Assembly (NCBI GenBank): GCA_963796275.1
Contig: CAWCKY010000001.1
Location: 1,216,001 to 1,280,000, forward strand
Reading direction: 5' to 3'
DNA: 64,000 nucleotides
Source of the DNA: an uncultured Acidobacteriota bacterium
GTDB lineage: Bacteria; Acidobacteriota; Blastocatellia; RBC074
In this document: piece by piece, positions 9,056 through 47,021 of the stretch
Position numbering within the stretch: position 1 is the first letter of the stretch
How the letters are laid out: each line of letters opens with the position of its first letter
Notes under the pieces: generated by a model
Told to the model about the DNA's origin: nothing
What the model saw: only the letters and a program-made list of their open reading frames with translations
Database searches by the model: none
Position numbers and translations under genes: made by a program

Positions 9056-10408
9056 TTACATCCTCTCCCGTACAGCTTTTATGCTTCCAAGCATGCCGAG
9101 AAGAATAATGAGCAATAGGGAAATGCCTGCTGCAGGCATCAGTACGCCCAGCAGGCATATCAACGCGATCAGCCATTTGGCCGGGTTGAATCCTTTTGGT
9201 TTATATGGAAAACCGGTTTTGCCTTTGGGCCGGCGAATCCACCACATTGCACCACCCGTCACGCTCATTGCTACGATCAACACACAGACGATCACGGCCA
9301 GAATCTTGGTCGCCGTGCCGTAGATCGATCCGATGTGGATTGAGTAGGCTGAGAGCTGCAATTTGGCTGCGGCCGAGAGCTGCCGCCATCGGACTGAATC
9401 CAGCACGGCACCTGAATACTGATCGATATGAAGAATCGTGACCGTTGACGGACTGTCGTAACTTCCCGCATAAACCGTGATGCTATTCTCGGCCGTGTGC
9501 GGGAAATCGATGTAAATCTCTTTTTCGCTTTGCTCCCGCCGCGTTAAGGCGATGATTTCATCGACCTTCACGCGGGCATCGCCGTCTTTCTTGATCGATT
9601 TTGGCGGATTGAGATAGCTCGGCGGATAGGATTTCGTCATATCAGCCATCATCTGATAGCCGCGTGCGAATAGAACCGTGAAAAAGAGGCCGGTCACCAG
9701 TACCAGGAAGGCGAGGAGTGAGAGATAGAAGCCGGGGACCGTGTGCCAGTCGCGCCAGATGACATAACTCTTTCCGCGCAATCGCGGCAGCCAGACGCCG
9801 CGCGTCTGATTGCCGCCGCGGGGCCACCACAGATAAACGCCCGTGATAATCAGGATGATGCCCCAGCTTGTTGCCAGTTCGACGATGATTCTGCCAGTCG
9901 TTCCGGCCAGCAGAGTGCGGTGGATATTGAGGATGACGCCGAAAAGTGAACTGTCATACGCGAGCTGCCCGAGCACGTTGCCCGTATGCTGATTGACGAA
10001 TACCCATGTAAAGCTTTCATGCGCAGTCTCGGCGATGATGGCTGTTGCGCGCGTGGGATCGTCTGAAACGGACACACCATGCACCGTTGCGCCAGAGGGA
10101 AGGGCAGCGGTCGCGGTTGTTAGCTGTTCGTCATATGAAAATGTTTGCGGCTGCGGCTCGACAAACATCAGATGCGGATAGATCACCCGTTCCAGCTCTT
10201 CTTTGAAAACATATAGCCCCCCGGTTAGGGAAACAGCTAGGAGCACGGGCAATACGATCAATCCCGCATAGAAATGCCAGCGCCAGATGACTCGGTAAAG
10301 ACGAGGCTCTTGCCTTCCATTGGTGATGATCTCGTCATGAGCAGCATCAGCCGTAGCCGGTTTAAAATGCTCTTCTGCCACGCTCGTGGTGTTCATCTCT
10401 AGACTCAT
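9056..10408 (-). CDS. PepSY-associated TM helix (iron-regulated membrane) protein
   Basis: WRWHFYAGL, IHRTLL, WRDWHTVPG and IHIGSIYG His motifs; directly downstream of a TonB receptor; start placed at MSLEM. Confidence 0.9.
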   Translation of the reverse strand: MSLEMNTTSVAEEHFKPATADAAHDEIITNGRQEPRLYRVIWRWHFYAGLIVLPVLLAVSLTGGLYVFKEELERVIYPHLMFVEPQPQTFSYDEQLTTATAALPSGATVHGVSVSDDPTRATAIIAETAHESFTWVFVNQHTGNVLGQLAYDSSLFGVILNIHRTLLAGTTGRIIVELATSWGIILIITGVYLWWPRGGNQTRGVWLPRLRGKSYVIWRDWHTVPGFYLSLLAFLVLVTGLFFTVLFARGYQMMADMTKSYPPSYLNPPKSIKKDGDARVKVDEIIALTRREQSEKEIYIDFPHTAENSITVYAGSYDSPSTVTILHIDQYSGAVLDSVRWRQLSAAAKLQLSAYSIHIGSIYGTATKILAVIVCVLIVAMSVTGGAMWWIRRPKGKTGFPYKPKGFNPAKWLIALICLLGVLMPAAGISLLLIILLGMLGSIKAVRERM

Positions 10409-10418
10409 AGATGTTTTG

Positions 10419-12755
10419 TTAGAAACGGTAACTGATGTTCGCTGTAATGGCCCGGCGCAAACCATAGAAACAGTCGCCCCGCGCCAGGCAAGTTGTGACG
10501 TGCACTCTATCGGTCAGGTTGGCGACATTGATCGCCAGTCGCCAGGTTCGAAAATCATAGGATAACATTGCATCGAAGAGGGTATAGGAAGGGGTTTTCA
10601 GTAGGTCGTTCCCATCCCATGATGTGCCGGTGAAGCGCACGCCGCCACCAGCGGTAAGGCTTCGTGAGTCGCCGATGCGGAAGATGCGCGTCGCCCACAG
10701 CGATGCGACGTGCGCCGGCGATGTCGGCAGCCTCTTTCCGAGGTCCGGACCGTTGCTCTTCGAGACGCGCGCATTTGTGAAGGAATAAGACGACAGCAGA
10801 TTCACTCTTCGGAAAACGGTGGCGTTGGCCTCGAGTTCGATCCCGCGCGTACGAGCTTCTCCGATCTGCAGGCTGTTGAGCGGATTGGTCGGATCAGGCG
10901 TGAGCCGGTTCTGTTGCCGCATATCGAAGAGAGCAAGACTTACCAGACCATTCCCGCTTCGCGGCTGGTACCGGACGCCGACCTCTACCTGCTTGCCACG
11001 CAGCGGCTTGTAGGGATTGTTATTGAAGTCGAGGCCCGTCACTGGTTGAAACGACTGCGAATAGTTAACGTAGGGAGAGATTCCGAGACTTGATAGGTAG
11101 ACGAATCCTGCCCGTCCCGTCACAGCTTGATCGTTCTGCCGCCCGGGGGTTACGCCCGCGGATTCGAAGCTGGCCCAGTCCTTGCGTATACCCATCGACA
11201 ATACCCACTGCTCGCGTATTTTGAGCTGGTCGTTGGCATAGATGCCGGTCTGATTCTGTCGTGTGTCGGGTAAGGCGTTCAGAGTTGGATAAGTGTAATT
11301 ACCGTAAACTGGAGTATAGACATCGAGCGCAGGCTCGTCGCTATACCCTTCGAAACCGGTGATCGTCGCCTTCTGATAATCCACCCCGGATAAAAACAGA
11401 TGTTGAAAAGGGCCCGTGCGCCAGCGTTTTTCCATCTGAGTATCAAACGCAAGGCTATTGAGCTCCTGCTTACTTACATAGAGTGTACGGTTGATACTCC
11501 GCTGGTCGTCGTTGAAAGCCGGAATCGGAGCGAATCGGGTATAGAACTCCTGAATGCTTCCGCGGCCGTTAGCGTAATTCAGGTTTTGCCGCACCGAGCA
11601 CCTGTCACTCAATCTGTGTTCGAAGAGATAGCTGATCGCGTTTTGTCTGGTGCTGTACTCATCGATGTCGGGTTCGCCTATGAACGTGTTGGTCGGAATC
11701 TGTCCGTAGACGTGCGGCAAAACCGTACCCTGCCAGGGGAAGAAACCGATCGATGAGCCGCCCTCGTCCTGTTGGAAATTGGTGAGAACGGTCAGCCGGG
11801 TTGCCTTTCCCGGCTTCCAGGTCAGCGATGGCGCGAGCAGCAGACGATCGTCCGGCACATAGTCCACCTGCGTGTTGCTGTCGCGACCGAGGGCGATTAT
11901 GCGATAGAGCCATTTTTCGTCGGTATCGATCGATCCGGTGAAATCGAACGCAGCCTGTTTGCGACCGTAGCTGCCCAGTTGCAGGCTGACTTCCCGGTGT
12001 GAGGTGGCAAGCGGTTTTTTTGAAACCAGATTGACGACCCCATTGAAACTGCCCTGACCATATAGTACCGAAGATGGTCCCCGTAGAACTTCGATCTGCT
12101 CGATGGAAAACGGGTCAGGCCGCGTATTGTTATTGTAGCCATACAACATGCGGATGCCGTTGAGATATTGTCCCCATTCCTCACCGCCGCGGATTGTCGC
12201 CCAATCGCCGCGGCTGTCGAGACCGTATGCTTCCGTGCGCACTCCCGCTGTGTAACGCAGCGCCTCCTGCAGAGTGAGGGGAGATTGGGCCACGAGATTT
12301 TCACGAGTAACAACCGAGGTTGCCTGCGGCGTCTCGACCAGCGGAATGTCTGTCTTCGAAGCCGTGGTAGGGATCTCTCTGATTTTCCCGACCACCTGGA
12401 CTGATTCTGTCATTCCGGGGGGGGCGAGGGCGATCTGCAGATCGAGCGTCTGGCCGGCCGCGAGCGTAATCTCCCGTGACTTCTCGGAGAGGCCGGCGCT
12501 CCGTACTATGACTCGATACGAACCGGGATCGAGATTTTCGATGTGAAAGTTCCCTTCGGCATCGGTCGCCGCCATCTTTTCACGGCCCGATGCAACTTCG
12601 CGCAGAATGATGGTAGCGCCAGCCAAAACAGATTGGGCTGTATCCGTTACTCTCCCCGTCAGCGTTGCAGTAGATTGGGCACGGACGAATAGTGTAATAA
12701 ATACACAACAGAGCAGACCCGCGGCAGTCCGCAGAAACATATTCCTTTTGGTCAT
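10419..12755 (-). CDS. TonB-dependent siderophore receptor (FhuA-like) with N-terminal carboxypeptidase-like domain
   Basis: ETPQATSVVT, IEVLRGPSSVLYG, C-terminal SYRF; signal peptide. Confidence 0.92.
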   Translation of the reverse strand: MTKRNMFLRTAAGLLCCVFITLFVRAQSTATLTGRVTDTAQSVLAGATIILREVASGREKMAATDAEGNFHIENLDPGSYRVIVRSAGLSEKSREITLAAGQTLDLQIALAPPGMTESVQVVGKIREIPTTASKTDIPLVETPQATSVVTRENLVAQSPLTLQEALRYTAGVRTEAYGLDSRGDWATIRGGEEWGQYLNGIRMLYGYNNNTRPDPFSIEQIEVLRGPSSVLYGQGSFNGVVNLVSKKPLATSHREVSLQLGSYGRKQAAFDFTGSIDTDEKWLYRIIALGRDSNTQVDYVPDDRLLLAPSLTWKPGKATRLTVLTNFQQDEGGSSIGFFPWQGTVLPHVYGQIPTNTFIGEPDIDEYSTRQNAISYLFEHRLSDRCSVRQNLNYANGRGSIQEFYTRFAPIPAFNDDQRSINRTLYVSKQELNSLAFDTQMEKRWRTGPFQHLFLSGVDYQKATITGFEGYSDEPALDVYTPVYGNYTYPTLNALPDTRQNQTGIYANDQLKIREQWVLSMGIRKDWASFESAGVTPGRQNDQAVTGRAGFVYLSSLGISPYVNYSQSFQPVTGLDFNNNPYKPLRGKQVEVGVRYQPRSGNGLVSLALFDMRQQNRLTPDPTNPLNSLQIGEARTRGIELEANATVFRRVNLLSSYSFTNARVSKSNGPDLGKRLPTSPAHVASLWATRIFRIGDSRSLTAGGGVRFTGTSWDGNDLLKTPSYTLFDAMLSYDFRTWRLAINVANLTDRVHVTTCLARGDCFYGLRRAITANISYRF

Positions 12756-12885
12756 TCGTTTTCCGTTATACGGCTGCTTGTGAGAGCAACCCAAGGTTTG
12801 TCATTTCATAGGCGGTGTGGCAGGATGACCCTCGCACACTGCCCGCGATGTTGCCAGAACAGACCGGTTCAGTTGTTGCAATATG

Positions 12886-12916
12886 AGCCTCCGGCGTGCC
12901 GCGCCGGGGGCTTTTT
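12886..12916 (+). terminator. Rho-independent terminator-like hairpin
   Basis: AGCCTCCGGCG-tgccg-CGCCGGGGGCT followed by a T run. Confidence 0.5.
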
Positions 12917-13077
12917 CCTGATACCTTTTCTCAATTTTTATAGAGCTAGTGAGTTACCCAGCTCGATGACCCCACGTTATTCTTACCCCGCACCTACCTC
13001 TCCGGGATAAATATCCGGTAATAAATTTCTTTGAAAACTAGATGTCATGAGATCTAAATAGATAAGTTAGCTGAAGT

Positions 13078-13092
13078 TGAAAATCATTTTCA
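13078..13092. promoter_or_regulatory. Fur-box-like operator
   Basis: Perfect 7-1-7 inverted repeat TGAAAAT-C-ATTTTCA, close to the Fur consensus TGATAATnATTATCA, between the siderophore receptor and the divergent gene. Confidence 0.65.
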
Positions 13093-13216
13093 GCTCGCTG
13101 CGATATTATAGACAGCATAAAGGCGTGTCAAGCATTTACTTGCTGCCAGTAACTGTCGCGCATACAATGGCAAAGATGAGGCAGTATCTGTAAAAAATAA
13201 TCTGGAAAAAAATTGG

Positions 13217-15901
13217 ATGAAGAGTGATTTCGATCTAGCAATTATCGGTTCTGGGTTTTCCGGTTCGCTGATGGCGATGATTGCGCGGCGCACGGGTCGA
13301 TCGGTCATTCTGTTGGATCACGGCGGGCATCCGCGATTCGCCATTGGGGAGTCGACCTCGCCGCTAATGAATCTGATCATCGAGCAATTGGCTGATCGCT
13401 ACGACCTGCCGCGACTGAAACCGCTCGCCACCTGGGGGGAGTGGCAGCGCACCTATCCGCAACTTGTTGGGGGGCTTAAACGCGGGTCCACCTTCTTCAA
13501 ACACGAATCGGGCACACCCTATCGGACAGCTCCGGATCATTCGAATCAATTACTTATATCAGCCAACCCGAACGATGAGGCCGCCGACACCCACTGGCTA
13601 CGCTCTGATGTTGATTATTTTCTGTTGCAGGAAGCCATTTCATGCGGAGCGGAATATCTTGATCAAACACGACTGAACTCCCTCGAATGGGCGGGTAGCG
13701 ACGGGGCAAACGGGGCAAACGGAGCAATCGGGGCAAACGGAGCAATACTTCGTGGTGAACGGCGCGGACGAGCTGTTAATCTGCGCGCGCGTTTTATTGT
13801 CGATGCCAGCGGCCCGCGCGGATTCTTGAGCAGGGCGCTCAATCTGAAGGAGCGGGCTTTTGCTGATTTTCCGGCGACCCAGGCGCTCTATTCACATTTC
13901 ATTGGCGTCCATCGATGTGAGGGGATGCCGGATTACGAAGTCGAAATAGATCCGCCGTACCCGATGGATGATTCGGCCGTACATCATGTTTTTGACGGTG
14001 GTTGGATGTGGGTTTTGCGTTTCAACAACGGAGTGACCAGCGCTGGGATCGCCGTAACCGAAGATATGGCGAGAGAGTTGAAACTGGCGGAGGGTGAAGC
14101 CGCTTGGCAGCGATTCCTTGCGCGATTCCCCTCGATCGCCGAGCAGTTTGCCGGCGCGCGAGCGATTCGAGAATTCACCTGGATGCCCCATCTGACGTAT
14201 CGTTCCGAGCTGGCTGCCGGGGACGGCTGGGCTTTGCTTCCGTCGGCCGCGGCATTCATCGATCCGCTTTTCGGTCCGGGGATGCCGATGTCGGTGCTCG
14301 GCATCGAAAGGCTCGGCCGGTTACTGGAGCATGACATCGCGGATTGTGAGGTTAATGACAGACTACGCGAATATAGCCGGGTGACGCTTATGGAAGCCGA
14401 TCATACGGCTGATTTCGTTGCTGGCTGCTATGCCGCGTTCCCGCATTTTGAACTCTTTACATCACTCTCGATGGTTTATTTTGCGGCCGCCAGCTTCTGT
14501 GAAATGGCCCGCAGATTGGGACGAAACCATCTAGCGCAGCGTTTTCTGGCCGTGGACCGACCGGCCTTTGCTAATGCTTCTGGCAGCCTGAGTCAAATTT
14601 TGCGTCACAACGAATGCCTTGACTCGATCCTATTTGCCGCTCAGGTGAAACAGAATATCGATACGCTGAACATAGCCGGGCTTTGCGATCAACGCAAACG
14701 AAACTGGTACGATGTGGATATTGAAAATATGATCCGATGCGCCGATAAGCTGGAGGTTACGTCAGATGAGATGGGAAGATTTTTGCGGAGCGCGAATTGG
14801 GCGCAAAAAGCCGTCCAACTTCATCAGGATCACACGAAGCAGCTGATTCAATCGGGGCAACTGCGCCAACGTTCGATCCGGCTATCCCATAATCTTTCCC
14901 GGGATGAAGCAGAATCTGGTGGCGATATGGTTGGATCCTGCCCGGCATTTCAGCTGATGCTCGAAGACGCCTTGAACGTTGCTCCTACCGATGTCACTGT
15001 TCTCCTGCGCGGAGAAACGGGGACGGGCAAGGAGCTGCTCGCCTACGCGATTCACCAGCACAGTTTACGCAGGCTCGGCCCATTCGTCATCGTCAATTGC
15101 GCGGCGTTGCCGCCTTCGTTGATAGAAAGCGAACTGTTCGGGTACGAGAAAGGCGCTTTCACCGGTGCGTCGCTGCGAAAGCCCGGGCGGTTCGAACTGG
15201 CGGATGGGGGAACCATCTTTTTGGATGAGATCGGTGAAGTGCCGCTGGAGATACAGGGAAGATTCTTGCGCGTGCTGCAGACCGGCGTTTTCGAGCGATT
15301 GGGGAGCACGAAGAGCGTCCGCGTCAAGGTCCGTATAATCGCTGCGACCAATCAGCCGCTCGAGCAACTCGTCAATGAGCGAAAGTTCCGCTCCGATCTT
15401 TTTTACCGTCTCAACGTCTTTCCGATCACACTGCCTCCGCTGCGCGAGCGATCAGCCGATATCCCACTGCTAGTTCGGCATTTCGTCGATAAATACAATG
15501 CGCGGTTCAAACGTTCGATAACATCGATCAGCAAACAGTCGCTCCACGCCTTGGAACAGTATGGCTGGCCCGGCAATGTGCGGGAGCTGGAACATCTGGT
15601 GGAGCGCGCCGTCCTCTCCGCTAAAGGTGAGATATTGAAAGTCGCACCACCCGCGATCTGCCTCGAACCTGCTTTACCGGTTAATGAAAGAGACACCCAG
15701 TTGGCCGAACCTGGTGTTTCGGCGCGGCCCGCAACCCTTACTGAGAACGAGTTGGCCCACATTCGAATGGTTTTGCGCCGCACTGGCGGCCGCATTTCGG
15801 GGCCGCAGGGAGCCGCTTCGATTCTCGGCATCCCGCCATCAACGCTTCGCAGTCGAATCAAAAAGCTGGGATTGAAAATCAATCCGGACGGCGCAAATTG
15901 A
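13217..15901 (+). CDS. Fusion protein: PrnC-like flavin-dependent halogenase domain + sigma54-interacting AAA+ domain + Fis-type HTH
   Basis: GSGFSG, IGEST, LKRG, HHVFDGGWMWVLRF and FIDPLF, then GETGTGKE, ESELFG.EKGAFTGA, FLDEIGE, WPGNVREL and a C-terminal HTH, all in one frame. Confidence 0.88.
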   Translation: MKSDFDLAIIGSGFSGSLMAMIARRTGRSVILLDHGGHPRFAIGESTSPLMNLIIEQLADRYDLPRLKPLATWGEWQRTYPQLVGGLKRGSTFFKHESGTPYRTAPDHSNQLLISANPNDEAADTHWLRSDVDYFLLQEAISCGAEYLDQTRLNSLEWAGSDGANGANGAIGANGAILRGERRGRAVNLRARFIVDASGPRGFLSRALNLKERAFADFPATQALYSHFIGVHRCEGMPDYEVEIDPPYPMDDSAVHHVFDGGWMWVLRFNNGVTSAGIAVTEDMARELKLAEGEAAWQRFLARFPSIAEQFAGARAIREFTWMPHLTYRSELAAGDGWALLPSAAAFIDPLFGPGMPMSVLGIERLGRLLEHDIADCEVNDRLREYSRVTLMEADHTADFVAGCYAAFPHFELFTSLSMVYFAAASFCEMARRLGRNHLAQRFLAVDRPAFANASGSLSQILRHNECLDSILFAAQVKQNIDTLNIAGLCDQRKRNWYDVDIENMIRCADKLEVTSDEMGRFLRSANWAQKAVQLHQDHTKQLIQSGQLRQRSIRLSHNLSRDEAESGGDMVGSCPAFQLMLEDALNVAPTDVTVLLRGETGTGKELLAYAIHQHSLRRLGPFVIVNCAALPPSLIESELFGYEKGAFTGASLRKPGRFELADGGTIFLDEIGEVPLEIQGRFLRVLQTGVFERLGSTKSVRVKVRIIAATNQPLEQLVNERKFRSDLFYRLNVFPITLPPLRERSADIPLLVRHFVDKYNARFKRSITSISKQSLHALEQYGWPGNVRELEHLVERAVLSAKGEILKVAPPAICLEPALPVNERDTQLAEPGVSARPATLTENELAHIRMVLRRTGGRISGPQGAASILGIPPSTLRSRIKKLGLKINPDGAN
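13703..13747 (+). repeat. In-frame 9-bp tandem repeat x5 (GAN/GAI)
   Basis: GGGGCAAAC GGGGCAAAC GGAGCAATC GGGGCAAAC GGAGCAATA. Confidence 0.8.
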
Positions 15902-16831
15902 TCAATACTCTACCAGAGGATCGACGACAGCCAGCCCAGCTCTTTCCTTTATAACCGAAAGGTGAGGCAGGAGCGCTTCCTCCAACTCTCCGCTAGTCAC
16001 CGTCGTGGCGCAATGATCAGTTGCGAGCTGTTTCCAGGGCGGCTTCTCACCATAGACGTACTCTCCGAAGACGAGCACCGGTGTTCCGTATCCGACGATC
16101 TGGCGACGATCTGAGGAAAGTTTCCACTCGTCTGCCCAGCCATAAAACCATGCTGCGTCATCGGCGAGCAGCCGGATGCAGGAATGGCTGGCAGGATATC
16201 CGGGAAGCTCATATTCGTGAATAGAAATGCCCTTCGCGTTGTCGAGGTTGAAGTACCAGCGGAGAAGCCACGCCGAGTTGACCGTACTACGGGTCGCCTT
16301 CGATCTCCAGTTCGTGTGATAAAGGCCCGCAGGAGTAGGCGTCGACTTCTTTCCTGTGCTGGTTGGCCCCCACCGCACGAGGCGCCCGAACTCATAGGCG
16401 CCGAAGGCCTGGACGCGCCGCGAAACCAAGAGCAGCCTGGGCGTGTCTCGCGCCTGCTCGACCTCAGATGGGAAAGGCGAGAGATTGACCAGATTGCTGA
16501 CAGACTCTGGTATCAGAAGTGTATCACCCTTTCGGATGTGTCCGGCATCGACCCGGTTCAGTTTGAGAACCGCCGCCATGGTTTCCTCGCCGATTTCAGC
16601 CTTGATCTGCGTAAGGGATTTCGCACCTTTAACAGCATAAGTGCGATAACTGATAGGATTGTTCTCGGGCATTTCGGGCACGAGCCTTGGATCGGAGCTG
16701 AGTCCCGTGGTTGGGGGATCATCGATCGTGATAGCCTCAAGATATCTGGGCGGCACCGTCATCGTGGTAATGAGCAGGAATGCACAGATGAGCCCGAGAG
16801 GCAATGTGCGCGGGATAAAAGTTGTTTTCAT
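15902..16831 (-). CDS. L,D-transpeptidase (YkuD family)
   Basis: TPAG motif and ISIHEY..PGYPASHSCIRL catalytic motif; LysM-like segment; N-terminal signal/TM. Confidence 0.88.
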   Translation of the reverse strand: MKTTFIPRTLPLGLICAFLLITTMTVPPRYLEAITIDDPPTTGLSSDPRLVPEMPENNPISYRTYAVKGAKSLTQIKAEIGEETMAAVLKLNRVDAGHIRKGDTLLIPESVSNLVNLSPFPSEVEQARDTPRLLLVSRRVQAFGAYEFGRLVRWGPTSTGKKSTPTPAGLYHTNWRSKATRSTVNSAWLLRWYFNLDNAKGISIHEYELPGYPASHSCIRLLADDAAWFYGWADEWKLSSDRRQIVGYGTPVLVFGEYVYGEKPPWKQLATDHCATTVTSGELEEALLPHLSVIKERAGLAVVDPLVEY

Positions 16832-16940
16832 CGTAATGAATCCTCCTTGTCCCGCGGATACTATTCGGATCGTGGTTTCTGCAGTAGGACTCTCGCCACA
16901 TTAAATAAATGTGGAATGCCGCCTGAAGCTGAGGCGGGGA

Positions 16941-17373
16941 TCACACAGTTTTGGGTTGAGGGTTCCCCGGTGCGTTTGGTACCGCTGGGAGATCTACTCC
17001 GTGCGCCCAAACCAATTTCCACTTCTCCTGATGCTTTACGAACACATCTACGAATGCCGCTGCGCTTATTTCCTCTTTACCTTCATCATTTAGCGTCCTG
17101 GCCTTCTGCGTTCCGCTCATTACGACCACGTCTGAAAATACGTTCGCCTTCATATCCTCGGACCAGACAGAGAGGATACTCAACGGGTAGTGACTCAATG
17201 GCAGCAAGAAACTCTGGCCTTGAGCGATCGCCTTCCATCGGATTTCTATAGATAAAATTATCCGACAAAATTTGATCCAGCTTGTTTGTGTCTTTACCCT
17301 TTATAGCAGCGAAGATATCGGTCTCAATTCGGAATATTTCGTTTTCAATCGACCCATCATGTTCTTGATTCAT
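16941..17373 (-). pseudogene. NTF2-like (DUF4440) protein, frameshifted
   Basis: ORFs 17086..17373 and 16941..17207 join into one NTF2-like protein if one base near 17179 (GAG-T-ATC) is removed. Confidence 0.7.
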
Positions 17374-17702: not shown

Positions 17703-19100
17703 TCAACCTCTCCGGATCAATTTCATTCTCCCGCTGGCACCTTTACCGTTTTGCAGTGTGTGTGACCAGGGGCCTTCGAACTGATCGTTGGTCAATTTCA
17801 CATATCCTTCAATAACCCCGCCTTTACCGTCCACCGCCTTGATGATGAACTTTTCGCCATCAAATCTCGGTTCGATCAGCGCTAATTCACTTCCCCCACC
17901 CCCAGGGGATAAAATTTTGCCAGTGAGACGATCTCCGTCGGTGTTGACGATCAGCACTGGACCTTGAGCGCCATCACCTTCTTCGTATCCATTCCCTTTA
18001 TCCAGGGCCACGTCCCACTCGCCGATGATTTTTTCGTTGGGCGACTTTTTTGAGTTATGTTCTTTGCTGCTCTGCTCGATATCGAGTGAGAAGACGGCGG
18101 CGAGGGCACTCGACGCTGTCAAAACCGAAAAAACGGCAGCCAATATAAGAGTTTTACTTCTCTTGCTCACGTGTGGTCTTCGTTCGATCAGTTTCATAAT
18201 GCGTTCCTCCAGAATGTCGGCTTCGAATACGCCGAGAGTGTATGCGGGCTGGTTTACAACCATCGCGGAATCGGCCAACTGCAGCAATGAGCGGGCGTAG
18301 GCCGGCGCATCGAGCAACCTGTCAGTCACCAACTCATCACAAGCCAATTCACGCGTCTCTTTGATTCGTCGTTTGATGAAAATGACTGCCGGGTGAAATG
18401 CAAGCAGTATGCTCAGTAGTTCGTAAATCAGGTTGAAAGTGAAGTCGCGTCGTTTGATATGCGCCATTTCGTGCCCGATCGCCGCGGACAATAGTTCGGG
18501 CGCATCGGAATCGAGCAGAGCCTCAGGCAGAACGATGCACCGTCTCCCGACTGTAAACGGAACGGCGATTTCAGCGGAGAAGAGAAGCGTGACGCCCTTT
18601 AATCCAAACTCTCTCTGGCATTGATCCTTGATCAGTGCGAGCCGTTCGGATATCTCGCGTTCGTTCGAGGCTGCCAGCAGAGCATTCGTCTTTCTCCCGG
18701 CGCGCCATAGCTTGATTCCGTAAAACAGCAACGAGAGCCAATAACAAGCCAACGCCAGCGCGGCGAGGGTCGGCGGCGGGGAGACCGTTCTCAAGCCCGT
18801 GCGAAAATAATCGCTCAGATCGAACGGTGATAGAGTGGGATTTGAATGGCCGCTTGCCACTCGACTTGAGATCGCCCTCCCCAGGGCGGAGCCTTGTACA
18901 TCACCGCTGAGGACCCCAGATGCGCCGAGCAGCGGAATCAGCACGCAAAGTGTCAGCGCCGCAACCCATAAGAAATGGCGTTGGCGCGCCGGGGCATTCC
19001 GCATCAACCGGTCGCAACCAAGCGCCGCAGCCGTGATCACCAGTGGTTGCCACAGGGCGTTGCCGAGAAAAGTCAGGAACCACTGATTAATCGTCTCCAT
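17703..19100 (-). CDS. BlaR1/MecR1-like M56 family metallopeptidase
   Basis: HEMAHIKRRD, RELACDELV, ILEERIMKL; multiple TMs; downstream of BlaI. Confidence 0.9.
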   Translation of the reverse strand: METINQWFLTFLGNALWQPLVITAAALGCDRLMRNAPARQRHFLWVAALTLCVLIPLLGASGVLSGDVQGSALGRAISSRVASGHSNPTLSPFDLSDYFRTGLRTVSPPPTLAALALACYWLSLLFYGIKLWRAGRKTNALLAASNEREISERLALIKDQCQREFGLKGVTLLFSAEIAVPFTVGRRCIVLPEALLDSDAPELLSAAIGHEMAHIKRRDFTFNLIYELLSILLAFHPAVIFIKRRIKETRELACDELVTDRLLDAPAYARSLLQLADSAMVVNQPAYTLGVFEADILEERIMKLIERRPHVSKRSKTLILAAVFSVLTASSALAAVFSLDIEQSSKEHNSKKSPNEKIIGEWDVALDKGNGYEEGDGAQGPVLIVNTDGDRLTGKILSPGGGGSELALIEPRFDGEKFIIKAVDGKGGVIEGYVKLTNDQFEGPWSHTLQNGKGASGRMKLIRRG

Positions 19101-19479
19101 CGCGTGCCTCCTTGGCCTCCAGCATTCGTTGAAGCCGGGCCAGTTTCTCCGGCGTCAATTGGCGCGACTCGACCAGACTCATCACCAGGCTCTCCGCCGA
19201 TCCCCCAAACAACCGGTCGATCAGGTCTTTGGCCGCGCTCCCGGCCACCTGATCGCGCTTCACTGCCGGACGGTAGTAATATGCCCGGTCTTTGAGCGTT
19301 CGCCTGGCCTTTTTCTTCCGCACCAATACGTTGAGCATCGTTTGTACCGTTGTATAAGCCAGCTCCCTTCCCAGCCGCTGCTGCACGGTCTGTACCGTCG
19401 CAGGGCTGGTCTCCCACAACACATTCATGATTTCGGTCTCGAGCGGCGTCAGCCGGTCGCTCTTTTTTCTAGGTGCCAT
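19087..19479 (-). CDS. BlaI/MecI/CopY family transcriptional repressor
   Basis: LTPLETEIMNVLW, LAYTTVQTML, DRLFGGSAESLV. Confidence 0.93.
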   Translation of the reverse strand: MAPRKKSDRLTPLETEIMNVLWETSPATVQTVQQRLGRELAYTTVQTMLNVLVRKKKARRTLKDRAYYYRPAVKRDQVAGSAAKDLIDRLFGGSAESLVMSLVESRQLTPEKLARLQRMLEAKEARDGDD

Positions 19480-27942: not shown

Positions 27943-29592
27943 ATGAAACATACCAAATTACCGATCCTGGTTATGCTCGCCTTAATGCTCAGCGCCGTGC
28001 GGGTCGAGGCCCAGGTTACGCGCGCGCAGGCGGAAGGTGCGCTTCGTAAGGCCGCCCAGTTCTATCGAGAGAAGGTTTCCACAAAGGGCGGCTATCACTA
28101 TTACTATGCCGAAGACCTGAGCTATGGCCGATCCGAGCACGGAGAAGGGCCGACGCAGATAGAAGTACAGCGCGAGGCGACTCCGATCGTGGGCCTTACC
28201 TACCTGCGCGCCTATGACGCCACCGGTGACCGGTTCTACCTCGAGGCGGCGCGCGCAGCGGCGAATGCTCTCGTCCTGGGCCAGCAATGTTCGGGCGGGT
28301 GGGATTACATAATCGAGTTCGATCCGGAGAAGCGCAAAAAATATCCTTATCGCGCCGACCAAAATTGCGAGGCGGAAAACGCGGGCCGGCACTATACGAC
28401 GCTGGACGACAACGTGACGCAGGGCGCCGTGCGGCTGATGATGCGGGTCGATCGCGAACTGAAGTTCGAAGACAAGAATATCCACGAGGCGGTTCTCTTC
28501 TCTCTGGATCAGTTGATGAAAACGCAGTACCCCAATGGCGCCTGGCCGCAGCGCTATTATCAGTTTGCTGATCCCGCTCGTTTCCCGGTGAAGAAGGCGA
28601 GCTATCCGGAATCCTGGTCACGGACGTGGCCGGGGCCGGATTATCGTTTCCTCTATACCTTCAACGACAATACGATCTCAGACCTGATCGACATGTTTCT
28701 GGAGGCCTGGCGAGTCTACGGAGACGACAGGTACCGCCGAGCCGCGGTGAAGGGCGGTGAATTTATCCTCCTGGCGCAGATGCCAGATCCTCAACCGGCG
28801 TGGGCGCAACAATACGATATCGATATGCACCCAGCTTGGGCTCGCATCTTTGAGCCGCCCTCGATCACCGGGGGCGAATCTCAGGGCATCATCCGAATCC
28901 TGCTGGTTCTTTATGCGGAGACGGGCGACAAGAAATATATCGAGCCGGTCCGCCGGGCTCTCGATTACCTGAAACGTTCTGTGCTGCCGTCGGTAGAGAA
29001 TCCGTCGGAAGCTCGCCGCCGCTTCAAAGAGGGGGAACCGGTGCTGGCACGCTTTTCCGAGCTGAAGACCAACCGCCCGCTATACATTACCAAGGGCACG
29101 CGCGTCAGCGTCCTGGGTAACGGAGCGTCTTTGGTGGGCGGGTACCAGCTCAGTTACACCGATGAATCGGTCATCACACATTACTCCGTGCTGGTCAGCG
29201 GCGCACAGCTCGGCGAGATCGAAGCCGAATATAAACGCCTGCTCGATGCCGACCCGGCTACTATCCGGCGTCCGTTGAAGTTGCGCGGCCTGTCGCCATG
29301 GAGCCACAGCGAAACACGATTGTCCGATGTCGGTGAGATCATCGCCAAGATGGACGCCCGCGGGGCCTGGGTCGAGGAGGGTAGTATCGGGAAATCCGAC
29401 CGCGTCGTCAGCGTATTTGCCGCACGCGATATGGTGGTAACCATCGGAGACCGAGTGTTGCCGATCAAAGAGAATGAGACTCTCGCAATCTTTCAGGGCA
29501 CAGAGAGCCCGCGCGGGCGCATCATCCGCTCTGAGACATTTGCGCGCAATATGGATGCTCTATGCTTATTTCTCGAGCAGGCAGGCCGGTGA
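27943..29592 (+). CDS. Pectate lyase, PL10 (pectic acid lyase) family
   Basis: TLDDNVT, QYPNGAWPQ, TFNDN, WAQQYD..MHPAWARIFEPPS; signal peptide. Confidence 0.8.
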   Translation: MKHTKLPILVMLALMLSAVRVEAQVTRAQAEGALRKAAQFYREKVSTKGGYHYYYAEDLSYGRSEHGEGPTQIEVQREATPIVGLTYLRAYDATGDRFYLEAARAAANALVLGQQCSGGWDYIIEFDPEKRKKYPYRADQNCEAENAGRHYTTLDDNVTQGAVRLMMRVDRELKFEDKNIHEAVLFSLDQLMKTQYPNGAWPQRYYQFADPARFPVKKASYPESWSRTWPGPDYRFLYTFNDNTISDLIDMFLEAWRVYGDDRYRRAAVKGGEFILLAQMPDPQPAWAQQYDIDMHPAWARIFEPPSITGGESQGIIRILLVLYAETGDKKYIEPVRRALDYLKRSVLPSVENPSEARRRFKEGEPVLARFSELKTNRPLYITKGTRVSVLGNGASLVGGYQLSYTDESVITHYSVLVSGAQLGEIEAEYKRLLDADPATIRRPLKLRGLSPWSHSETRLSDVGEIIAKMDARGAWVEEGSIGKSDRVVSVFAARDMVVTIGDRVLPIKENETLAIFQGTESPRGRIIRSETFARNMDALCLFLEQAGR

Positions 29593-29633: not shown

Positions 29634-32600
29634 GTGATGAATTTTTTTGAGTCAATGAACAGCATGAAATGGAAATTGCCAGTTTTGTTCCTGGCTTGCG
29701 GCTTACTTGTTTACTCGTTCTGTAGTGAATCGGCCGTCAGCCGCGCGCAGCGACGCATCGATTTCAACCGCGACATTCGCCCGATCCTTTCTGATAAATG
29801 TTTCGCCTGCCATGGACCGGACGCGCCCAACCAGAAGATCAGGCTGCGTCTCGATTCAGAGGCCGCCGCGACTGCTGATCTGGGGAGAGGCCGTCGCGCA
29901 ATCGTTCCGGGTGATATTGAACGGAGCGAGGTCGTGCGCCGCATCACGGCGAGCGACGAATCGATGCGAATGCCTCCGTCATATTCCGGACATAAATTGA
30001 CTCGAACAGAGATCGATCTGATTATCGACTGGATCAAAGATGGCGCACAGTGGCAGAAACATTGGTCGTTCATCCCGCCTGACAGGCCGGAGCTGCCGCA
30101 AGTCAAAAACAAATCGTGGCCGAAAAACCCGATCGATTATTTTGTGCTGCAACGTCTGGAGCGCGAAGGTTTGGAACCCTCGCCCGAGGCTGATCGCGCC
30201 ACTCTCTTACGCCGTCTGTCTTTCGATCTGACCGGGCTTCCGCCGTCGCTGAAGGAGATCGATGACTTTATCAACGACAAATCGGATTATGCCTACGAAA
30301 AGGTCGTCGACCGTTTGCTCAGCAGCCCACGGTACGGCGAACGGATGGCTTTCAGATGGCTCGATGCGGCCAGGTATGCCGATACGAACGGATATCAGAT
30401 CGATGGGAATCGCGATGCCTGGCGCTGGCGCGATTGGGTGATCGAATCTTTCAACCGCAATATGCCGTTCGACCAATTCGTTGTCGAGCAATTGGCCGGC
30501 GATCTGTTGCCGAACGCTACTCTCGACCAGAAGATCGCCACCGCATTCAATCGCAACCATCGCATCAACGCCGAAGGGGGGATCGTTCCCGAAGAATATC
30601 GCATCGAGTATGTCGTCGATCGCGTAGACACGACATCGACCGTCTTCATGGGGCTGACGATGGGCTGCGCGCGCTGCCATAACCACAAATACGATCCGAT
30701 TACGCAGAAGGAGTATTATCAGCTCTCCGCCTATTTCAACAGCATCGACGAAGATGGGCATTCATTTGACCAGGGGAATTCACCGCCTTTGATCGCCGCA
30801 CCCACTGATGAGCAACAGCGGAAATTATCGCACTACGATCGGGTGATCGAAGAAGCTGAAAATCGAATCGATGTGCTATCACAACAATACGCCGCAAACC
30901 AACGCCGCTGGGAGAAGTCATTGAAATCTTCCGCTCGCGGGAAATCGAAACGACACTGGTTCCCAGAAGAAAATCTACTGGTACATCTTGGGTTCGATCA
31001 AACCAGCATCCCCGTCTTCAACAAATCGGACCGGCCGTATCACGGGCAATCCGACAAGAAGATGGAGATCGGATTCAAGGGAGGCACGCCGCACTACGTG
31101 GTTGCGCCGGCGGGGCAGGGGGTAGCCTTCGACGGAAAATTATCATTCGATGCCGGCTTGCACGCTGATTTCCGTTACAAATCGACTTCTCAGGATTTCC
31201 GTGAGCGTTTCACGATTGCTGCGTGGGTATACCCGGGATCGGAACAGAGCGGCTCAATTGTTACGAAGGTCAGCGACAACCCGGCGGAAACGGAAAATAA
31301 CATCCCGCGCGCCGATGGTTACGGAATCTATTTTCTGAATGGCAAGCTCCATTTCAATATGGTTTTCCGCTGGGGCGAAGATACGCTGCGAGTCGAAACG
31401 GAAAATACATTGCCGGTCAAACAGTGGCATCATATAGCCGTGGTGTTCGATGGATCTGAGGTCTGGGAAGACCGCATCCGTATCTACGTAGACGGGAAGC
31501 AGGAAAAACTGAAATTCAATCAACGAAATTTCTTTCTGTTTTTCGGCAATTCCAGGGAGACGCTGAAGATCGGCGCCGGCGGCGGTCCGCAGGTTCGCTT
31601 CAAAGGCGCGCTTGACGAAGTGCGAATTTATAGCCGCGCCCTCGATACGGATGAGATCGCTCTGCTCGGTTGCGCAGATTCGCTGGAAAAAATCGCAGCG
31701 ATTCCTTCCGCCAATCGAACGCGCGTCCAGGAGTTAAAGATTCATCGCGCCTTCGTCGCGCAAGCCGGCCCGGCAGATGTGAAAGATGCTTACAAAAAAT
31801 TGATCGATCTCAAACAGGAGAGGCTCAATTTTACAGACACCATCCCTACCTTGATGGTCATGGAAGAGTTGCCCGAGCCTCGTCCGACATTTTTGCTCAA
31901 GCGCGGCGCGTATGATGCTCCCGGTGAAAAAGTAGGCCGCGGCGTTCCATTCGCATTGCCGTCGATTCCTTCGTCCTTCCCTGACAACCGTCTCGGTTTC
32001 TCGAAATGGCTGGTCAGCCCCGGTCATCCTCTGACGTCTCGTGTAGCGGTGAACCGGTTCTGGCAGATGCTGTTCGGTTCAGGACTCGTCATCACCGGAG
32101 AGGATTTTGGATTACAGGGAGAATTGCCTGCACACCCGGAATTGCTTGATTGGCTGGCGGTGGAGTTTATGAACCCGGGGCAGAACGGCGGGATGGGGCG
32201 TTCGGGCGATGAACTAAAGAGTCCCATCGCCCAGTCCAACTCCCCAGACCTTCCGTGGAATGTCAAAGATTTGCTCAAGACAATTGTGATGAGCGCCACC
32301 TATCGCCAGGAGTCTAAGATCGACGAACGCCTGCAACAGCGCGATCCGGACAACCGGTTGCTTGCGCGCGGCCCGCGGTTCAGGCTTCCGGCTGAAATGA
32401 TACGCGACCAAGCTCTTGCTGTTTCAGGCCTGCTAGTTGAAAAACTCGCTGGGCCATCGGTAAAACCGTATCAGCCGGATGGTCTATACAAGGACATGGC
32501 ATTTTCCGGTCTCACCGGTTACGAACGTGATAAGGGTGATGGATTGTGGCGGCGCAGTCTTTACACTTTCTGGAAACGGACTGTGCTCACGCCGAATATG

Positions 32601-33005
32601 CAGGTATTCGACGCTTCGGCGCGCGAATTCTGCACGGTGCGGGATACGCGCACAAACACGCCGCTGCAATCGCTCAACCTGATGAACGATGTCACCTACA
32701 TCGAAGCCTCGCGGATGCTGGCACAGCGGATGTTACTGGAAGGCGGGAATTCTCCGACCGCGCGAATCAGTTGGGCTTTTCGACTGCTGACATCGCGACA
32801 ACCGAAAGCCAGAGAGATTGATATCCTGCTGCGGAATCTCGACCAACAGATAGCTCACTTCGCCCGCAATCCGCAGCATGCAGTCAAACTGTTGTCAGTC
32901 GGTGAAATGCGGAATGACAGTAAACTGAATGCATCAGAACTGGCTGCGTATGCAGCGACGGCGAGTCTTATTCTGAATCTCGATGAAGTGATTACCAAGC
33001 AGTAA
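29634..33005 (+). CDS. DUF1549/DUF1553 protein with planctomycete cytochrome c domain and LamG insert
   Basis: [39 protein letters not shown], LamG ([22 protein letters not shown]), TNTPLQSL. Confidence 0.92.
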
Positions 33006-33212
33006 GTGTGTGTTTCTTCGAAGCCATGAAAGATCGTGATTGCCTATGATCTATTCGTAGAGGATGTGCAAATTATGAATGATGTTATAAACGCGCCCCC
33101 TAGGGTTATGGCAATGAATAGGACCCTTTTGGGGCCCTACGATGTAATCGACCTTAATTCAATGCCATTGTCCTTGGGGCTTCAAGTCGAACCAGCAAAG
33201 GTAGATTGACTC

Positions 33213-34667
33213 ATGATGAACCCGCTCAATGATTATCATCTGACGATGACCCGCAGGTATTTCTTCAGCAGATTTGGCCTCGGCCTCGGTACTGCCGCTC
33301 TGGCCTCGCTCCTGAAGGAGAATGTTTTTGGGAGGGGTTTGCCTCAAAATAGCGACGCTTTGAACGGTTTGCCTCATTTTACTCCTAAGGCGAAGCGCGT
33401 GATTTATCTCTATCAAGCCGGTGGGCCGTCGCAGCTCGAGCTCTTCGATCCCAAACCGATGCTTGAAAATCTGCGCGGCCAGAACCTGCCCGAGTCGATT
33501 CGGATGGGGCAGCGATTAACCGGTATGACCGCTCATCAAGCGACCTGGCCGACAGCGCCTTCGAGATTCAAATTCGCGCAACATGGCGAATCGGGAGCAT
33601 GGCTCAGTGAATTGCTTCCCCACACTTCCAAGCTTGCCGATCAATTGTGCTTCATCAAGTCAATGCATACAGAACAGATCAATCATGATCCGGCGATTAC
33701 GTTTTCGCTAACGGGGTTCCAGCTCGCCGGTCGTCCGAGCCTGGGTTCGTGGGTCGCGTACGGACTTGGAAGTGAGAATAAAGACCTGCCGGCATTCATC
33801 GTTATGATATCGGTCGGCAGGACCGGCGGCGATCAGCCTTTATATGATCGGCTGTGGGGAAGCGGATTTTTGGCTTCACGTTACCAGGGTGTGAAGTTTC
33901 ATAACGGTCCGGATCCGGTGCTCTACTTGTCGAATCCTCCGGGCGTGGCTAAGCAAGTGCGCAGGCAATTTCTCGATGATCTTGCGGAAATGAACCGGAT
34001 CAATGCCGAGGAGTTCGGTGACCCCGAGATACTCTCGCGCGTGGCCCAGTACGAGATGGCATATAGAATGCAGACCTCGGTTCCTGAACTGAACGATCTA
34101 TCAAAAGAGACTGAAAAGACCTTTGAGCGGTACGGTCCGGATGCGCGCAAGCCTGGCACCTTCGCGTTCAACTGCATTCTGGCGCGCCGCCTGGTAGAAC
34201 GCGGCGTGCGTTTCATACAGTTGTTCCATCGCGGTTGGGACCAGCACGGGGACTTGCCGAAAAACATAGCGAAACAGTGTCTGGACACGGATCAGCCTTC
34301 GGCGGCCTTAATTCTTGATTTGAAAGAACGAGGTTTGCTGGAGGACACATTGGTGATTTGGGGCGGTGAATTCGGACGGACGGTCTATTCACAGGGTAAA
34401 CTTACGGCCGACAATTACGGGCGCGACCACCATCCGCGCTGTTTCACTGTTTGGCTCGCAGGCGGCGGCATCAAGCCGGGAATTTCGATCGGCGAAACCG
34501 ATGACTTCAGCTACAACATCACTCGCGACCCGGTTCACGCCCATGACCTCAACGCTACCATCCTGCATTGCCTGGGTATCGATCACAAACAGCTAACATA
34601 CAAGTTCCAGGGGAGAGACTTCAGATTGACCGATGTTCATGGCAATGTTGTTACTAAGATTTTATAG
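33213..34667 (+). CDS. DUF1501 family (sulfatase-like) protein
   Basis: TRRYFF Tat-like signal, [32 protein letters not shown]. Confidence 0.92.
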
Positions 34668-46117: not shown

Positions 46118-46639
46118 GGACTCACAGTGCCTGGCTAAATTTGAATTTGTTTTATCTTGTGACTAATCGTGCAGCCAATTCCTCCCATCTACACCCCTTC
46201 CGTTTTGCGCACCATAAATCGGTAGATGAGGCAATGCCCTGAAATCTATCGGGCATTATATGAGACTCAACAAGAAGAACTGATCAGTGAAGAAAAGTCT
46301 TGCATTATCGGTATATCCGCCATTCTCATCCCGTCTCCCATTCGACTCAAGATTTGTGAGGAAGCTTGCCCTAAACCTGATCAGACATCGCTAGTATTTG
46401 GTTAATATGCATGACCCCATAAAACTTATCCGGTATTTGTCTTATTGCGCAACAAATACTCCTAACCTCATTTTTTGTCAACATCAATTTCCTCATTTCG
46501 CGAAGGAAATGTTATGAAAGGGGCCGATGCTATAAATCACCGGGCGAGCGGGCCTCCGATTACTCCGATTACTATGAAATCCGCCCGTCCGGAGCGAAGA
46601 GCTTTCCCCTCATTTTTCGGGGCTTGTTACGGATTGAGC

Positions 46640-47003
46640 CTTTTCCTTTCCGGACACACGATTTCTGACCGCCTGAAGGCGGAAACACGGATATTGCGTT
46701 TGGAGTTCCGTGTTTCGCGGTCTTCCTTTCCGCACGCGATTTCTGACCGCCTGAAGGCGGAACTCCGAACACGGATATTGCGTTTGGAGTTCCGCGTTTA
46801 CGCGGTCTTCCTTCCGCACACGATTTGACCGCCTGAAGGCGGAAACACGGATATTGCGTTTGGAGTTCCGTGTTTTGCGGTCTTCCTTTCGCACACGATT
46901 TGACCGCCTGAAGGCGGAAACACGGATATTGCGTTTGGAGTTCCGCGTTTACGCGGTCTTCCTTTCCGCACGCGATTTCTGACCGCCTGAAGGCGGAACT
47001 CCG
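46640..47003. repeat. BIME-like array of alternating inverted REP units, ~75-82 bp period, 5 copies
   Basis: GACCGCCTGAAGGCGGAA at ~46667, 46745, 46827, 46902 and 46981, alternating with the inverted variant GGAGTTCCG(C/T)GTTT(A/C/T)(C/-)GCGGTC and near-constant linkers. Confidence 0.85.
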
Positions 47004-47021
47004 AGCTCGTTTTCTTTATCG

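Follow-up and report, generated by a model that had tools for sequence, protein, structure and literature searches.

A flavin-dependent-halogenase-fold domain at the input position of a sigma54 activator in a soil acidobacterium

The window analysed here, a 64,000-nucleotide (nt) stretch of DNA from an uncultured acidobacterium (genome G000), contains one unbroken open reading frame (ORF) of 894 amino acids (aa), on the plus strand at 13217-15901, in which a flavin-dependent-halogenase-type domain is followed by the AAA+ and helix-turn-helix (HTH) parts of a sigma54-dependent activator (table 1). The first-pass annotation, made from the letters alone, had described a single frame joining a halogenase to an intact AAA+ domain and an HTH, and ORF, Pfam matches and predicted fold all agree with it. 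Pfam places Trp_halogenase at residues 188-407 (E 1e-9), Sigma54_activat at residues 572-737 (E 1.6e-67), AAA_lid_14 at residues 743-809 and HTH_8 at residues 842-884, the last scoring above its curated cut-off (E 5.6e-6). A sequence search of the solved structures pairs residues 5-426 with CtcP (E 4.8e-51) and PltM (E 6e-45). Structure prediction, a check proposed by the same annotation, gives an N-domain with the CtcP/PltM fold: the AlphaFold2 model, built from a 149-row alignment, has a mean predicted local distance difference test (pLDDT) score of 80, with values of ~90 in the N-domain and below 50 in the linker at residues 538-570, and Foldseek matches the N-domain to CtcP and PltM (E 1e-28 to 5e-32; template modelling (TM) score to the target 0.78-0.84; ~530-570 columns), including the PltM-type C-terminal helical region. 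The C-terminal part matches the AAA+ domains of NtrC1, FleQ and ZraR.

Table 1. Features of the fused gene and of its upstream surroundings, in window coordinates
Feature	Position	Strand	Basis
Whole gene, halogenase-fold/sigma54 enhancer-binding protein fusion	13217..15901	+	ORF, Pfam, fused orthologues
N-terminal PltM/CtcP-type flavin-dependent-halogenase-fold domain including C-terminal helical subdomain, residues 1-530	13217..14806	+	sequence, Foldseek, pLDDT
GSGFSG dinucleotide (FAD) binding motif, residues 11-16	13247..13264	+	conservation
Lys88 codon, aligned with PltM catalytic Lys87	13478..13480	+	alignment
GAN tripeptide-repeat expansion, surface loop, residues ~161-175	13697..13741	+	alignment, pLDDT
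W-M-W-V-L-R, subfamily variant of WxWxIP, residues 263-268	14003..14020	+	alignment
FIDPLFGPGM, Fx.Px.Sx.G-type motif with Ser -> Gly353 and Thr -> Pro354, residues 347-356	14255..14284	+	alignment
Variable Q/R-rich linker, residues 531-571	14807..14929	+	pLDDT, alignment
Sigma54-interaction AAA+ domain and lid, residues 572-809	14930..15643	+	Pfam, motifs
Fis-type HTH_8 DNA-binding domain, residues 842-884	15740..15868	+	Pfam E 5.6e-6
TonB-dependent receptor (probable ATG at 12755; ORF 10419-12794) and PepSY_TM protein (9056-10465), neighbours only	9056..12755	-	Pfam
Perfect palindrome TGAAAATCATTTTCA, the first-pass annotation's 'Fur-like box'	13078..13092	.	sequence
Sigma70-like promoter TTGACA-17-TAATAT facing the TonB receptor	13103..13131	-	10/12 matches, weak

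The motifs quoted for this protein are mostly as described: the flavin adenine dinucleotide (FAD) motif GxGxxG, GGLKRG with K88, GGWMWVLRF at residues 261-269 and FIDPLF at residues 347-352 are all in place, as are Walker A and B and GAFTGA; what does not hold is the IP ending of WxWxIP, since the stretch reads W-M-W-V-L-R. Across the 69 clusters of fused proteins introduced below, Walker A (GETGTGKE, residues 599-606) is identical in 69/69, the sigma54-contact loop GAFTGA (residues 646-651) is kept in 68-69 and Walker B (IFLDEIG, residues 667-673) is invariant save for its last Gly (68/69); the AAA+ motifs, arginine-finger region and sensor II included, are invariant or nearly so, and the HTH stretch PxSTLRSRIKKLG is kept. 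NCBIfam returns many equivalog matches for bacterial enhancer-binding proteins (bEBPs), confined to the AAA+/HTH part and all below cut-off (NifA 354 vs 529; FhlA 346 vs 830; NorR 338 vs 476). Judged by its sequence features, the 894-aa protein is a bEBP, belonging to no named equivalog, and the halogenase-type domain occupies the usual bEBP input-domain position. The linker, taken earlier for helical and FhlA-like, bears out neither description: it is of low confidence at residues 538-570, differs in length and sequence between fused orthologues, and stands in place of the heptad-repeat N-terminus of the unfused activators. The GAN repeat loop is confined to the window protein and, in shorter form, to its two nearest relatives, P0002 and P0003, with pLDDT below 50 at residues 162-172; metagenome depth spikes at this repeat (13697-13741), owing to its low complexity.

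Is the fusion genuine? Sixty-nine protein clusters of at least 850 aa contain both PF04820 and PF00158, with 66-88% identity over query residues 1-540 (the window protein, P0001, included), and all carry source labels of Blastocatellia or Acidobacteria. Next in rank come 47 standalone proteins (495-545 aa, 58-67% identity). In a 400-genome sample of the class, tblastn recovered full-length fused frames in 13 genomes besides G000 (73-79% identity). All 13 belong to the same family as G000, for which the search covered 86 genomes, and with G000 included they represent four genera. The class-wide and phylum-wide genome counts include two unpublished genomes that are absent from the trees, G024, with a standalone relative (L017), and G607, with a 402-aa, 79% identical fragment at a contig end (L049); no further result depends on either. 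In 400 genomes spread over the phylum, identity to the best matches beyond the family does not exceed 51%, and their loci show no AAA+ match. Long frames near relatives of 34-51% identity (G357, G286, G389 and G146) were considered as fusions outside the family and rejected on the same ground, no AAA+ match being found in their loci; an 896-aa frame in G005 lay outside this locus check. In a library of 1.84 billion proteins clustered at 50%, only 1 of the best 150 representatives is long enough for the fusion.

The junction itself (14750-14930), for which the first-pass annotation had advised a check of spanning reads, is bridged by contigs of unrelated metagenome runs, one covering 13568-15901 and another 14231-15064. 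A search of sequencing runs listed no RNA holder, and the DNA holders it listed had small shares (at most 0.17). An assembly artefact, or a recent one-off deletion joining two genes, might seem conceivable given that split and unfused arrangements occur in relatives, but the same in-frame junction recurs in the 13 further genomes, the 69 clusters and the independent metagenome contigs, and the fused clade has diverged to 66-88% identity and is hence old; we regard such an artefact as next to impossible. The fusion is thus neither a one-off nor represented in relatives by separate genes only, the two outcomes that the earlier annotation had named against itself, even though unfused and split forms do exist. 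Of the N-domain columns, 259/520 are conserved at 95% or more. Taken together, the sequences show a genuine and conserved fusion on which purifying selection acts. One variant protein, P0078 (611 aa, on a single 2-kb metagenome contig), combines a halogenase-like domain with an HTH (67% identity to window residues 835-886) but lacks the AAA+ domain entirely; it is possibly a natural repressor or competitor form.

The surroundings of the fused gene in other genomes suggest what it may control. Eleven orthologous fused loci were fetched, and these share a divergent TonB-type barrel (OMP_b-brl_4 and CarboxypepD_reg), a major facilitator superfamily (MFS) transporter, a 170-aa protein, and TPR, FG-GAP and UnbV_ASPIC proteins. 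Their intergenic regions are alignable and have three elements in common: two to three tandem palindromes near GCGATATATCGC (consensus GCGAtATaTCGC) at ~20 bp spacing; a GG-N10-GC (-24/-12) motif ~100-150 bp off on the divergent strand, always TTGC-terminated, as in CGGCCAGGCAATTGCT; and a sigma70-type promoter, TTGAAT-N17-TATTTT, for the activator gene. The TTGC is invariant in the 17 promoters collected. Palindromes and -24/-12 motif stand beside the activator gene in 8 of the 11 fused loci with upstream sequence; in L067 the module lies directly downstream of the gene, and in L062 and the window it is absent. It is present as well in 4/4 unfused loci and in the one split locus, and counted over all loci, candidate activating sites with a -24/-12 promoter adjoin the orthologous gene in 14 of 17. 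In the four unfused loci and the split locus the order is activator gene, palindromes, -24/-12 motif, a small heptad-repeat ORF, then barrel and/or MFS transporter.

In 12 loci, which fall among L063-L070, L079 and L091-L095 (e.g. L095:9402-9641, that is, G000 C7:364402-364641), the promoter is followed directly by the small heptad ORF, of 64-99 aa and with invariant N-Q heptads. Its product belongs to no known family, a weak IcmQ match being all that was found, and has heptads of the type xNQxxIx in common with the N-terminus of the unfused activators. By analogy, this suggests that small protein and unfused activator may form a PspA/PspF-like partner pair; a complex prediction for the small protein with window residues 520-894 scored 0.00 and counts neither way. 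In G482, the same strand continues after the barrel and MFS genes with TPR/FG-GAP, FG-GAP/ASPIC and RnfD-like proteins, an SsuA-type ATP-binding cassette (ABC) importer, a PP-loop ATPase and a RaSEA-like radical S-adenosylmethionine (radical-SAM) protein, and the run ends at a standalone halogenase and a second barrel. Since this run is continuous, the halogenase paralogue would belong to the regulon of the unfused activator. In the standalone operons (L073-L080), a RaSEA-like radical-SAM gene and a PP-loop (Asn-synthase-like) ATPase gene always precede that of the halogenase-like enzyme, and this gene set adjoins an SsuA-type ABC importer.

How did the fused form originate? Residues 530-894 have orthologues of ~395-405 aa at 63-73% identity, which contain no sensory Pfam domain. 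All five fused genomes examined hold the fused copy alone at E <= 1e-110, and all five genomes without the fused gene hold one ~400-aa orthologue (66-73% identity), that of G488 being the split form; fused and unfused forms are mutually exclusive in the genomes examined. In G000 the fused gene is the sole orthologue, with 65% identity as against at most 55.5% for paralogues. In the split arrangement of G488 (L079:9675-12468) the activator gene begins 1 nt after the stop codon of a standalone halogenase. The N-domain tree resolves the fused proteins as one clade (SH-aLRT 100) nested within the standalone enzymes of the family, with G585, then G455/G595, closest to it; in the activator tree, 13/14 fused halves form one clade (98), and the unfused G455 protein is nearest. 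Because the fused clade is monophyletic, a single origin is indicated, and the trees place this fusion once, inside one acidobacterial family. Both trees are consistent with one event that joined an enzyme of the cluster to the activator of that same cluster. Given that the operon of the unfused activator runs on to a standalone halogenase paralogue, the fusion apparently put a copy of a regulon enzyme onto the activator of that regulon. The G488 halogenase was considered as a sister of the fused clade and rejected, as it falls in a basal polytomy; the split arrangement may thus be independent. If the N-domain was recruited as a sensor, unfused, split and fused forms would be candidate stages in the birth of a sensor from a pathway enzyme, all still found in one family, though neither tree sets the split form beside the fused clade.

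Does the N-domain retain what a halogenase needs? The GSGFSG motif is kept in 66-67/69 fused clusters (two are gapped there) and in 125/130 family representatives, and position 88 is Lys in 66/69 fused, 47/47 standalone and 129/130 representative sequences; the corresponding PltM mutant, K87A, is inactive (PMC6424973). In the W.W.LR motif, L and R are present in 69/69 fused and 47/47 standalone proteins, and among the representatives L is found in 128/130 and R in 95/130. The WxWxIP signature of flavin-dependent halogenases (FDHs) is therefore wanting in the window protein (WMWVLR), whereas CtcP and PltM have IP; a review of FDHs notes that some of these enzymes are without the motif. By sequence, even the standalone W.W.LR enzymes thus form a separate branch of uncharacterised proteins. 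Fixed differences between fused and standalone proteins number only five, and position 353 is among them: Gly in 67/69 fused, Ser in 47/47 standalone and 128/130 representative sequences, the following residue being Pro or Ala in the fused proteins instead of Thr. Phe91, three residues past the Lys, is replaced by Ser in 57/69 fused clusters. The motif to which position 353 belongs, Fx.Px.Sx.G, is said in the review to occur in all active FDHs. With the near-invariant Ser lost and both FAD motif and Lys kept, a ligand or flavin sensor is favoured over an active halogenase. The substitutions suggest that the N-domain is a binder or pseudo-enzyme rather than a working halogenase, and the full halogenase envisaged in the first-pass annotation may not be active. 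In PrnA, Ser347-Thr348-Gly349 presumably forms the halide site and corresponds to this motif.

At up to two mismatches the window contains one GCGAtATaTCGC-type site, coding-internal, against 4.0 expected, and neither a canonical enhancer palindrome nor a TTGC -12 element occurs in the intergenic region between the TonB-dependent receptor gene and the fusion. Since palindromes are not found in the window beyond chance, the activator must act in trans in G000. The genome encodes rpoN (Sigma54_DBD at C3:1419712-1420188, E 4.5e-58) and yields ~44 strong bEBP matches. Genome-wide, 24 palindrome pairs were found, as against 3 in a reversed-sequence control, and the four best are all intergenic, two before intact TonB-type barrel genes and a third before a fragmented one. 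A barrel orthologue (77% identity) lies at C6:2826413, with palindromes at 2826050 and 2826070 and TGGTCAGAGAATTGCC ~150 bp further; a second barrel gene (C4:689877-693113) is located behind palindromes at 693348 and 693368 and the motif TGGCGGAGAAATTGCT. More palindrome clusters occur at C6:2174970 (before the fragmented barrel gene) and at C7:253446 (near the gene for the 170-aa protein), and C7:361546-372475 holds the heptad ORF, a permease, FG-GAP proteins, an RnfD-like protein and ABC genes. Genes for the standalone halogenase, the PP-loop protein and the radical-SAM protein are absent from G000, and the rest of the cluster is scattered. We infer that the fused gene of G000 has left the neighbourhood of its regulon, working in trans on predicted targets that lie on other contigs. 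The TonB-type barrel gene at C6:2175202-2178206, behind one of the palindrome pairs, is split into three ORFs, and the ABC permease at C7:363382-364054 matches as two overlapping pieces; both may be pseudogenes or assembly errors.

Overall, it seems fairly probable that the protein is a sigma54 activator with a flavin-halogenase-fold input, copied from an enzyme of its own regulon and sensing the small molecule of that enzyme. In this soil acidobacterium, as in relatives from its family, the input part would be a duplicated halogenase-type enzyme, taken from a gene cluster that is most likely under the control of the switch itself. In the mechanism we propose, a whole flavin-dependent-halogenase-fold domain would replace the usual bEBP signal-input module. 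The activator would bind the GCGAtATaTCGC palindromes and drive the barrel/MFS regulon; the fused domain, as a duplicate of the regulon enzyme, would sense that enzyme's small molecule, probably phenolic or aromatic and possibly together with FAD/FADH2. The signal would be passed on by holding or releasing assembly of the AAA+ ring, as the regulatory domains of other bEBPs do. CtcP dimerises through the FAD domain, belongs to a family with an FAD sensor loop, and has a C-terminal helical region that helps to form the substrate cleft (PMC12400496). In the fusion this region runs directly into the linker, and since the substrate-cleft helices lead into the linker, a sensor that binds without halogenating and gates AAA+ assembly is favoured. 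That the fold is a ligand- or flavin-sensing input captured from the controlled pathway, with halogenation disabled by Ser353Gly and Thr354Pro/Ala, is a narrower claim, to which we give somewhat less than an even chance.

Several observations weigh against this captured-sensor interpretation. Lys88, the FAD motif and half of the N-domain columns are strongly conserved, which would fit an active enzyme equally, and the role given to Ser353 is taken from a sentence in a review and from PrnA. Since the W.W.LR variant runs through the whole subfamily, halogenation is unproven for the standalone enzymes too. In the window, the upstream region is without palindromes or a TTGC -12 promoter and the assignment of a regulon in G000 rests on distant sites, which, with ~44 bEBPs in the genome, another activator could use. 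Among these sites, the candidate promoter that precedes the heptad ORF (C7:364340) is spaced by 11 nt rather than 10 and lacks a clear palindrome, and the sigma54 motif at C7:253601 faces the 3' end of a convergent gene. Finally, with no genes for a standalone halogenase, a PP-loop protein or a radical-SAM protein in G000, catalysis there might fall to the fused domain.

This last point leads to a bifunctional trigger enzyme, in which a working halogenase or flavin monooxygenase would make the inducer in cis or couple turnover to activation, like the path from PltM to PltR collapsed into one protein. FAD motif and Lys88 are conserved (66/69), the N-domain is under strong purifying selection, and no other copy of the halogenase-like enzyme exists in G000. 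Moreover, its relative PltM makes a chlorinated phloroglucinol that switches on the pyoluteorin genes, probably via PltR (PMC8003664); the product of PltM being itself a transcriptional signal, an active trigger enzyme stays a serious rival. However, the fused proteins have Gly for Ser353 in 67/69 clusters, with Pro or Ala in place of the next Thr, the Phe91 position near the Lys is changed too, and no flavin reductase was noticed in the clusters, though none was specifically searched for. We thus judge the trigger enzyme improbable, while giving it the most weight among the rivals. The conserved FAD-binding motifs would also suit a flavin/redox or oxygen sensor that reports the FAD/FADH2 state, comparable to NifL acting on NifA but in cis, and FAD-dependent loop movements are seen in PltM and CtcP, enzymes to which free FAD(H2) binds reversibly (PMC12400496). 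Such a sensor would have no need of the helical substrate-cleft subdomain, which is kept, conserved and modelled with high confidence, and the regulon looks devoted to taking up and processing a compound rather than to a redox response; a pure redox sensor is accordingly a decidedly unlikely reading. Less likely still is a passive scaffold, serving dimerisation or stability only, with control coming from elsewhere, for example from the small heptad protein as a PspA-like anti-activator. Dimerisation of CtcP through its FAD domain (PMC12400496) would agree with it, as would the unfused orthologues, which have no ligand-binding domain and only heptads like those of the small first-gene protein, and the metagenome variant P0078, which keeps domain and HTH without AAA+; yet a domain that served only as a scaffold would not keep its active-site Lys and FAD motifs, and the complex prediction lends no support to contact between small protein and activator.

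The first-pass annotation had linked the fusion to the divergent TonB receptor/PepSY_TM pair upstream, to several sigma54 promoters in the window and to a nonribosomal peptide synthetase (NRPS), and none of these links is supported. No orthologue of either gene of the pair is found beside any of the 11 fused loci fetched, on which ground both were rejected as targets, and the region shows no sigma54 signals but a sigma70-like promoter instead. For the receptor as target, the sole upstream GG-N10-GC candidate, CGGCACGCCGGAGGCT (12886-12901, minus strand), has no TTGC, and the single palindrome CCGGGATAAATATCCGG (13002-13018) is off the GCGAtATaTCGC consensus. A sigma54 consensus scan of the window gave 26 matches, with 27.6 expected, and hence no enrichment; the TTGACA-17-TAATAT search found 1 site where 1.0 is expected. 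The palindrome TGAAAATCATTTTCA lies ~10 bp downstream of the -10 element of the minus-strand promoter; when the orthologous regions are aligned, it falls where their own promoter has its -35 region. Near-perfect copies of TGAAAAT(C/G)ATTTTCA occur at three places in G000 (window 13078-13092, C1:593547 and C6:1423014). It agrees at 13/15 positions with the 7-1-7 Fur-box core; its location fits an operator of the TonB receptor operon, and it is possibly the operator of a metal regulator. A GC-rich hairpin with a T-run is located between the divergent genes (12887-12920, plus strand), and Rfam has no match at E <= 0.1 in window 12000-17000.

Pfam was run on 30 further window ORFs of 130-2175 aa and on the fusion, and no NRPS is among these 31. 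The large ORFs encode CHAT/TPR, Ig-repeat pectinesterase, PSCyt/DUF1553 and lasso-type Asn-synthase proteins. A 651-aa Asn_synthase+GATase protein adjoins a 253-aa PqqD+transglutaminase protein (56682-59398, minus strand), a maturation pair of the lasso-peptide type, and this pair is probably what had been taken for an NRPS. Other neighbours include a YkuD transpeptidase and BlaR1/BlaI, none of them beside the 11 orthologous fused loci; the latter are a BlaR1-like M56 sensor-protease and a BlaI-type repressor gene (17703-19479, minus strand). Further along lie a Pec_lyase ORF (27943-29592), a PSCyt1/PSCyt2/PSD1 (DUF1549/DUF1553) protein with its DUF1501 partner (29634-34667, plus strand), a pair typical of Planctomycetes, and a pectin-degradation island (39590-49286) with a 2175-aa Ig-repeat pectinesterase/pectate lyase and a family-11 rhamnogalacturonan lyase.

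bEBPs are modular, and input domains such as REC, GAF, PAS, V4R and CARF set what sigma54 regulons listen to. The protein described here adds a 530-aa flavoenzyme fold to that list and, if the narrower claim made above is correct, would mark the first known case of a transcription factor using a halogenase-type active site as its sensor. As donor enzyme, recipient activator, split arrangement and predicted operator, promoter and regulon can all be named, the hypothesis is directly testable. For the halogenase field, a large W.W.LR subfamily is marked out (725 representatives at E <= 1e-30), of which the fused branch may be a natural pseudo-enzyme, with Ser353, and possibly Phe91, as residues that may separate binding from catalysis. 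The fusion also offers a first handle on a widespread acidobacterial uptake cluster, composed of TonB-type barrel, MFS transporter, FG-GAP/ASPIC proteins, SsuA-type ABC importer, radical-SAM and PP-loop proteins.

In agreement with the first-pass annotation, which knew of no characterised halogenase input domain, our literature searches found no published description of a halogenase-type domain on a sigma54 activator among the papers listed, judged by title or abstract. The mechanism proposed for the fusion is that of XylR, DmpR and MopR, one-component sigma54 activators in which an aromatic effector, once bound by the N-terminal V4R domain, lifts the repression of the AAA+ part. V4R-type activators (Pfam PF02830/PF06505) are among the nearest paralogues, but their input is ~200 aa long and has no enzyme fold, whereas that of the fusion is a 530-aa flavoenzyme fold. 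In NifL-NifA, a flavoprotein likewise controls a sigma54 activator, NifL being a separate PAS-FAD protein that acts in trans and the fused domain lying in cis. PutA, a trigger enzyme, similarly unites an enzyme fold and DNA-binding regulation in one polypeptide, yet is a repressor and fully catalytic. The unfused orthologues, for their part, are reminiscent of PspF, having no sensory domain, a gene beside a sigma54 operon and a small helical-repeat protein encoded first, although the heptad protein is unrelated in sequence to PspA. CtcP, the tetracycline 7-halogenase, is the best solved relative by sequence and by fold (TM score to the target 0.80), and has a dimeric FAD domain, an FAD sensor loop and a helical substrate-cleft subdomain; unlike the fusion, it works in biosynthesis, retains both WxWxIP and Ser-x-Gly and carries no regulatory output domain. 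PltM, the second-best solved relative by sequence, shares the fold, including the C-terminal helical region, and since its product is a transcriptional signal (PMC8003664), there is a precedent for such a halogenase feeding a transcription factor. In Pseudomonas protegens, PltM and PltR are a separate active enzyme and a LysR-type regulator, whereas in the acidobacterial protein the enzyme fold is joined to a sigma54 AAA+ domain and the Ser of the motif is gone.

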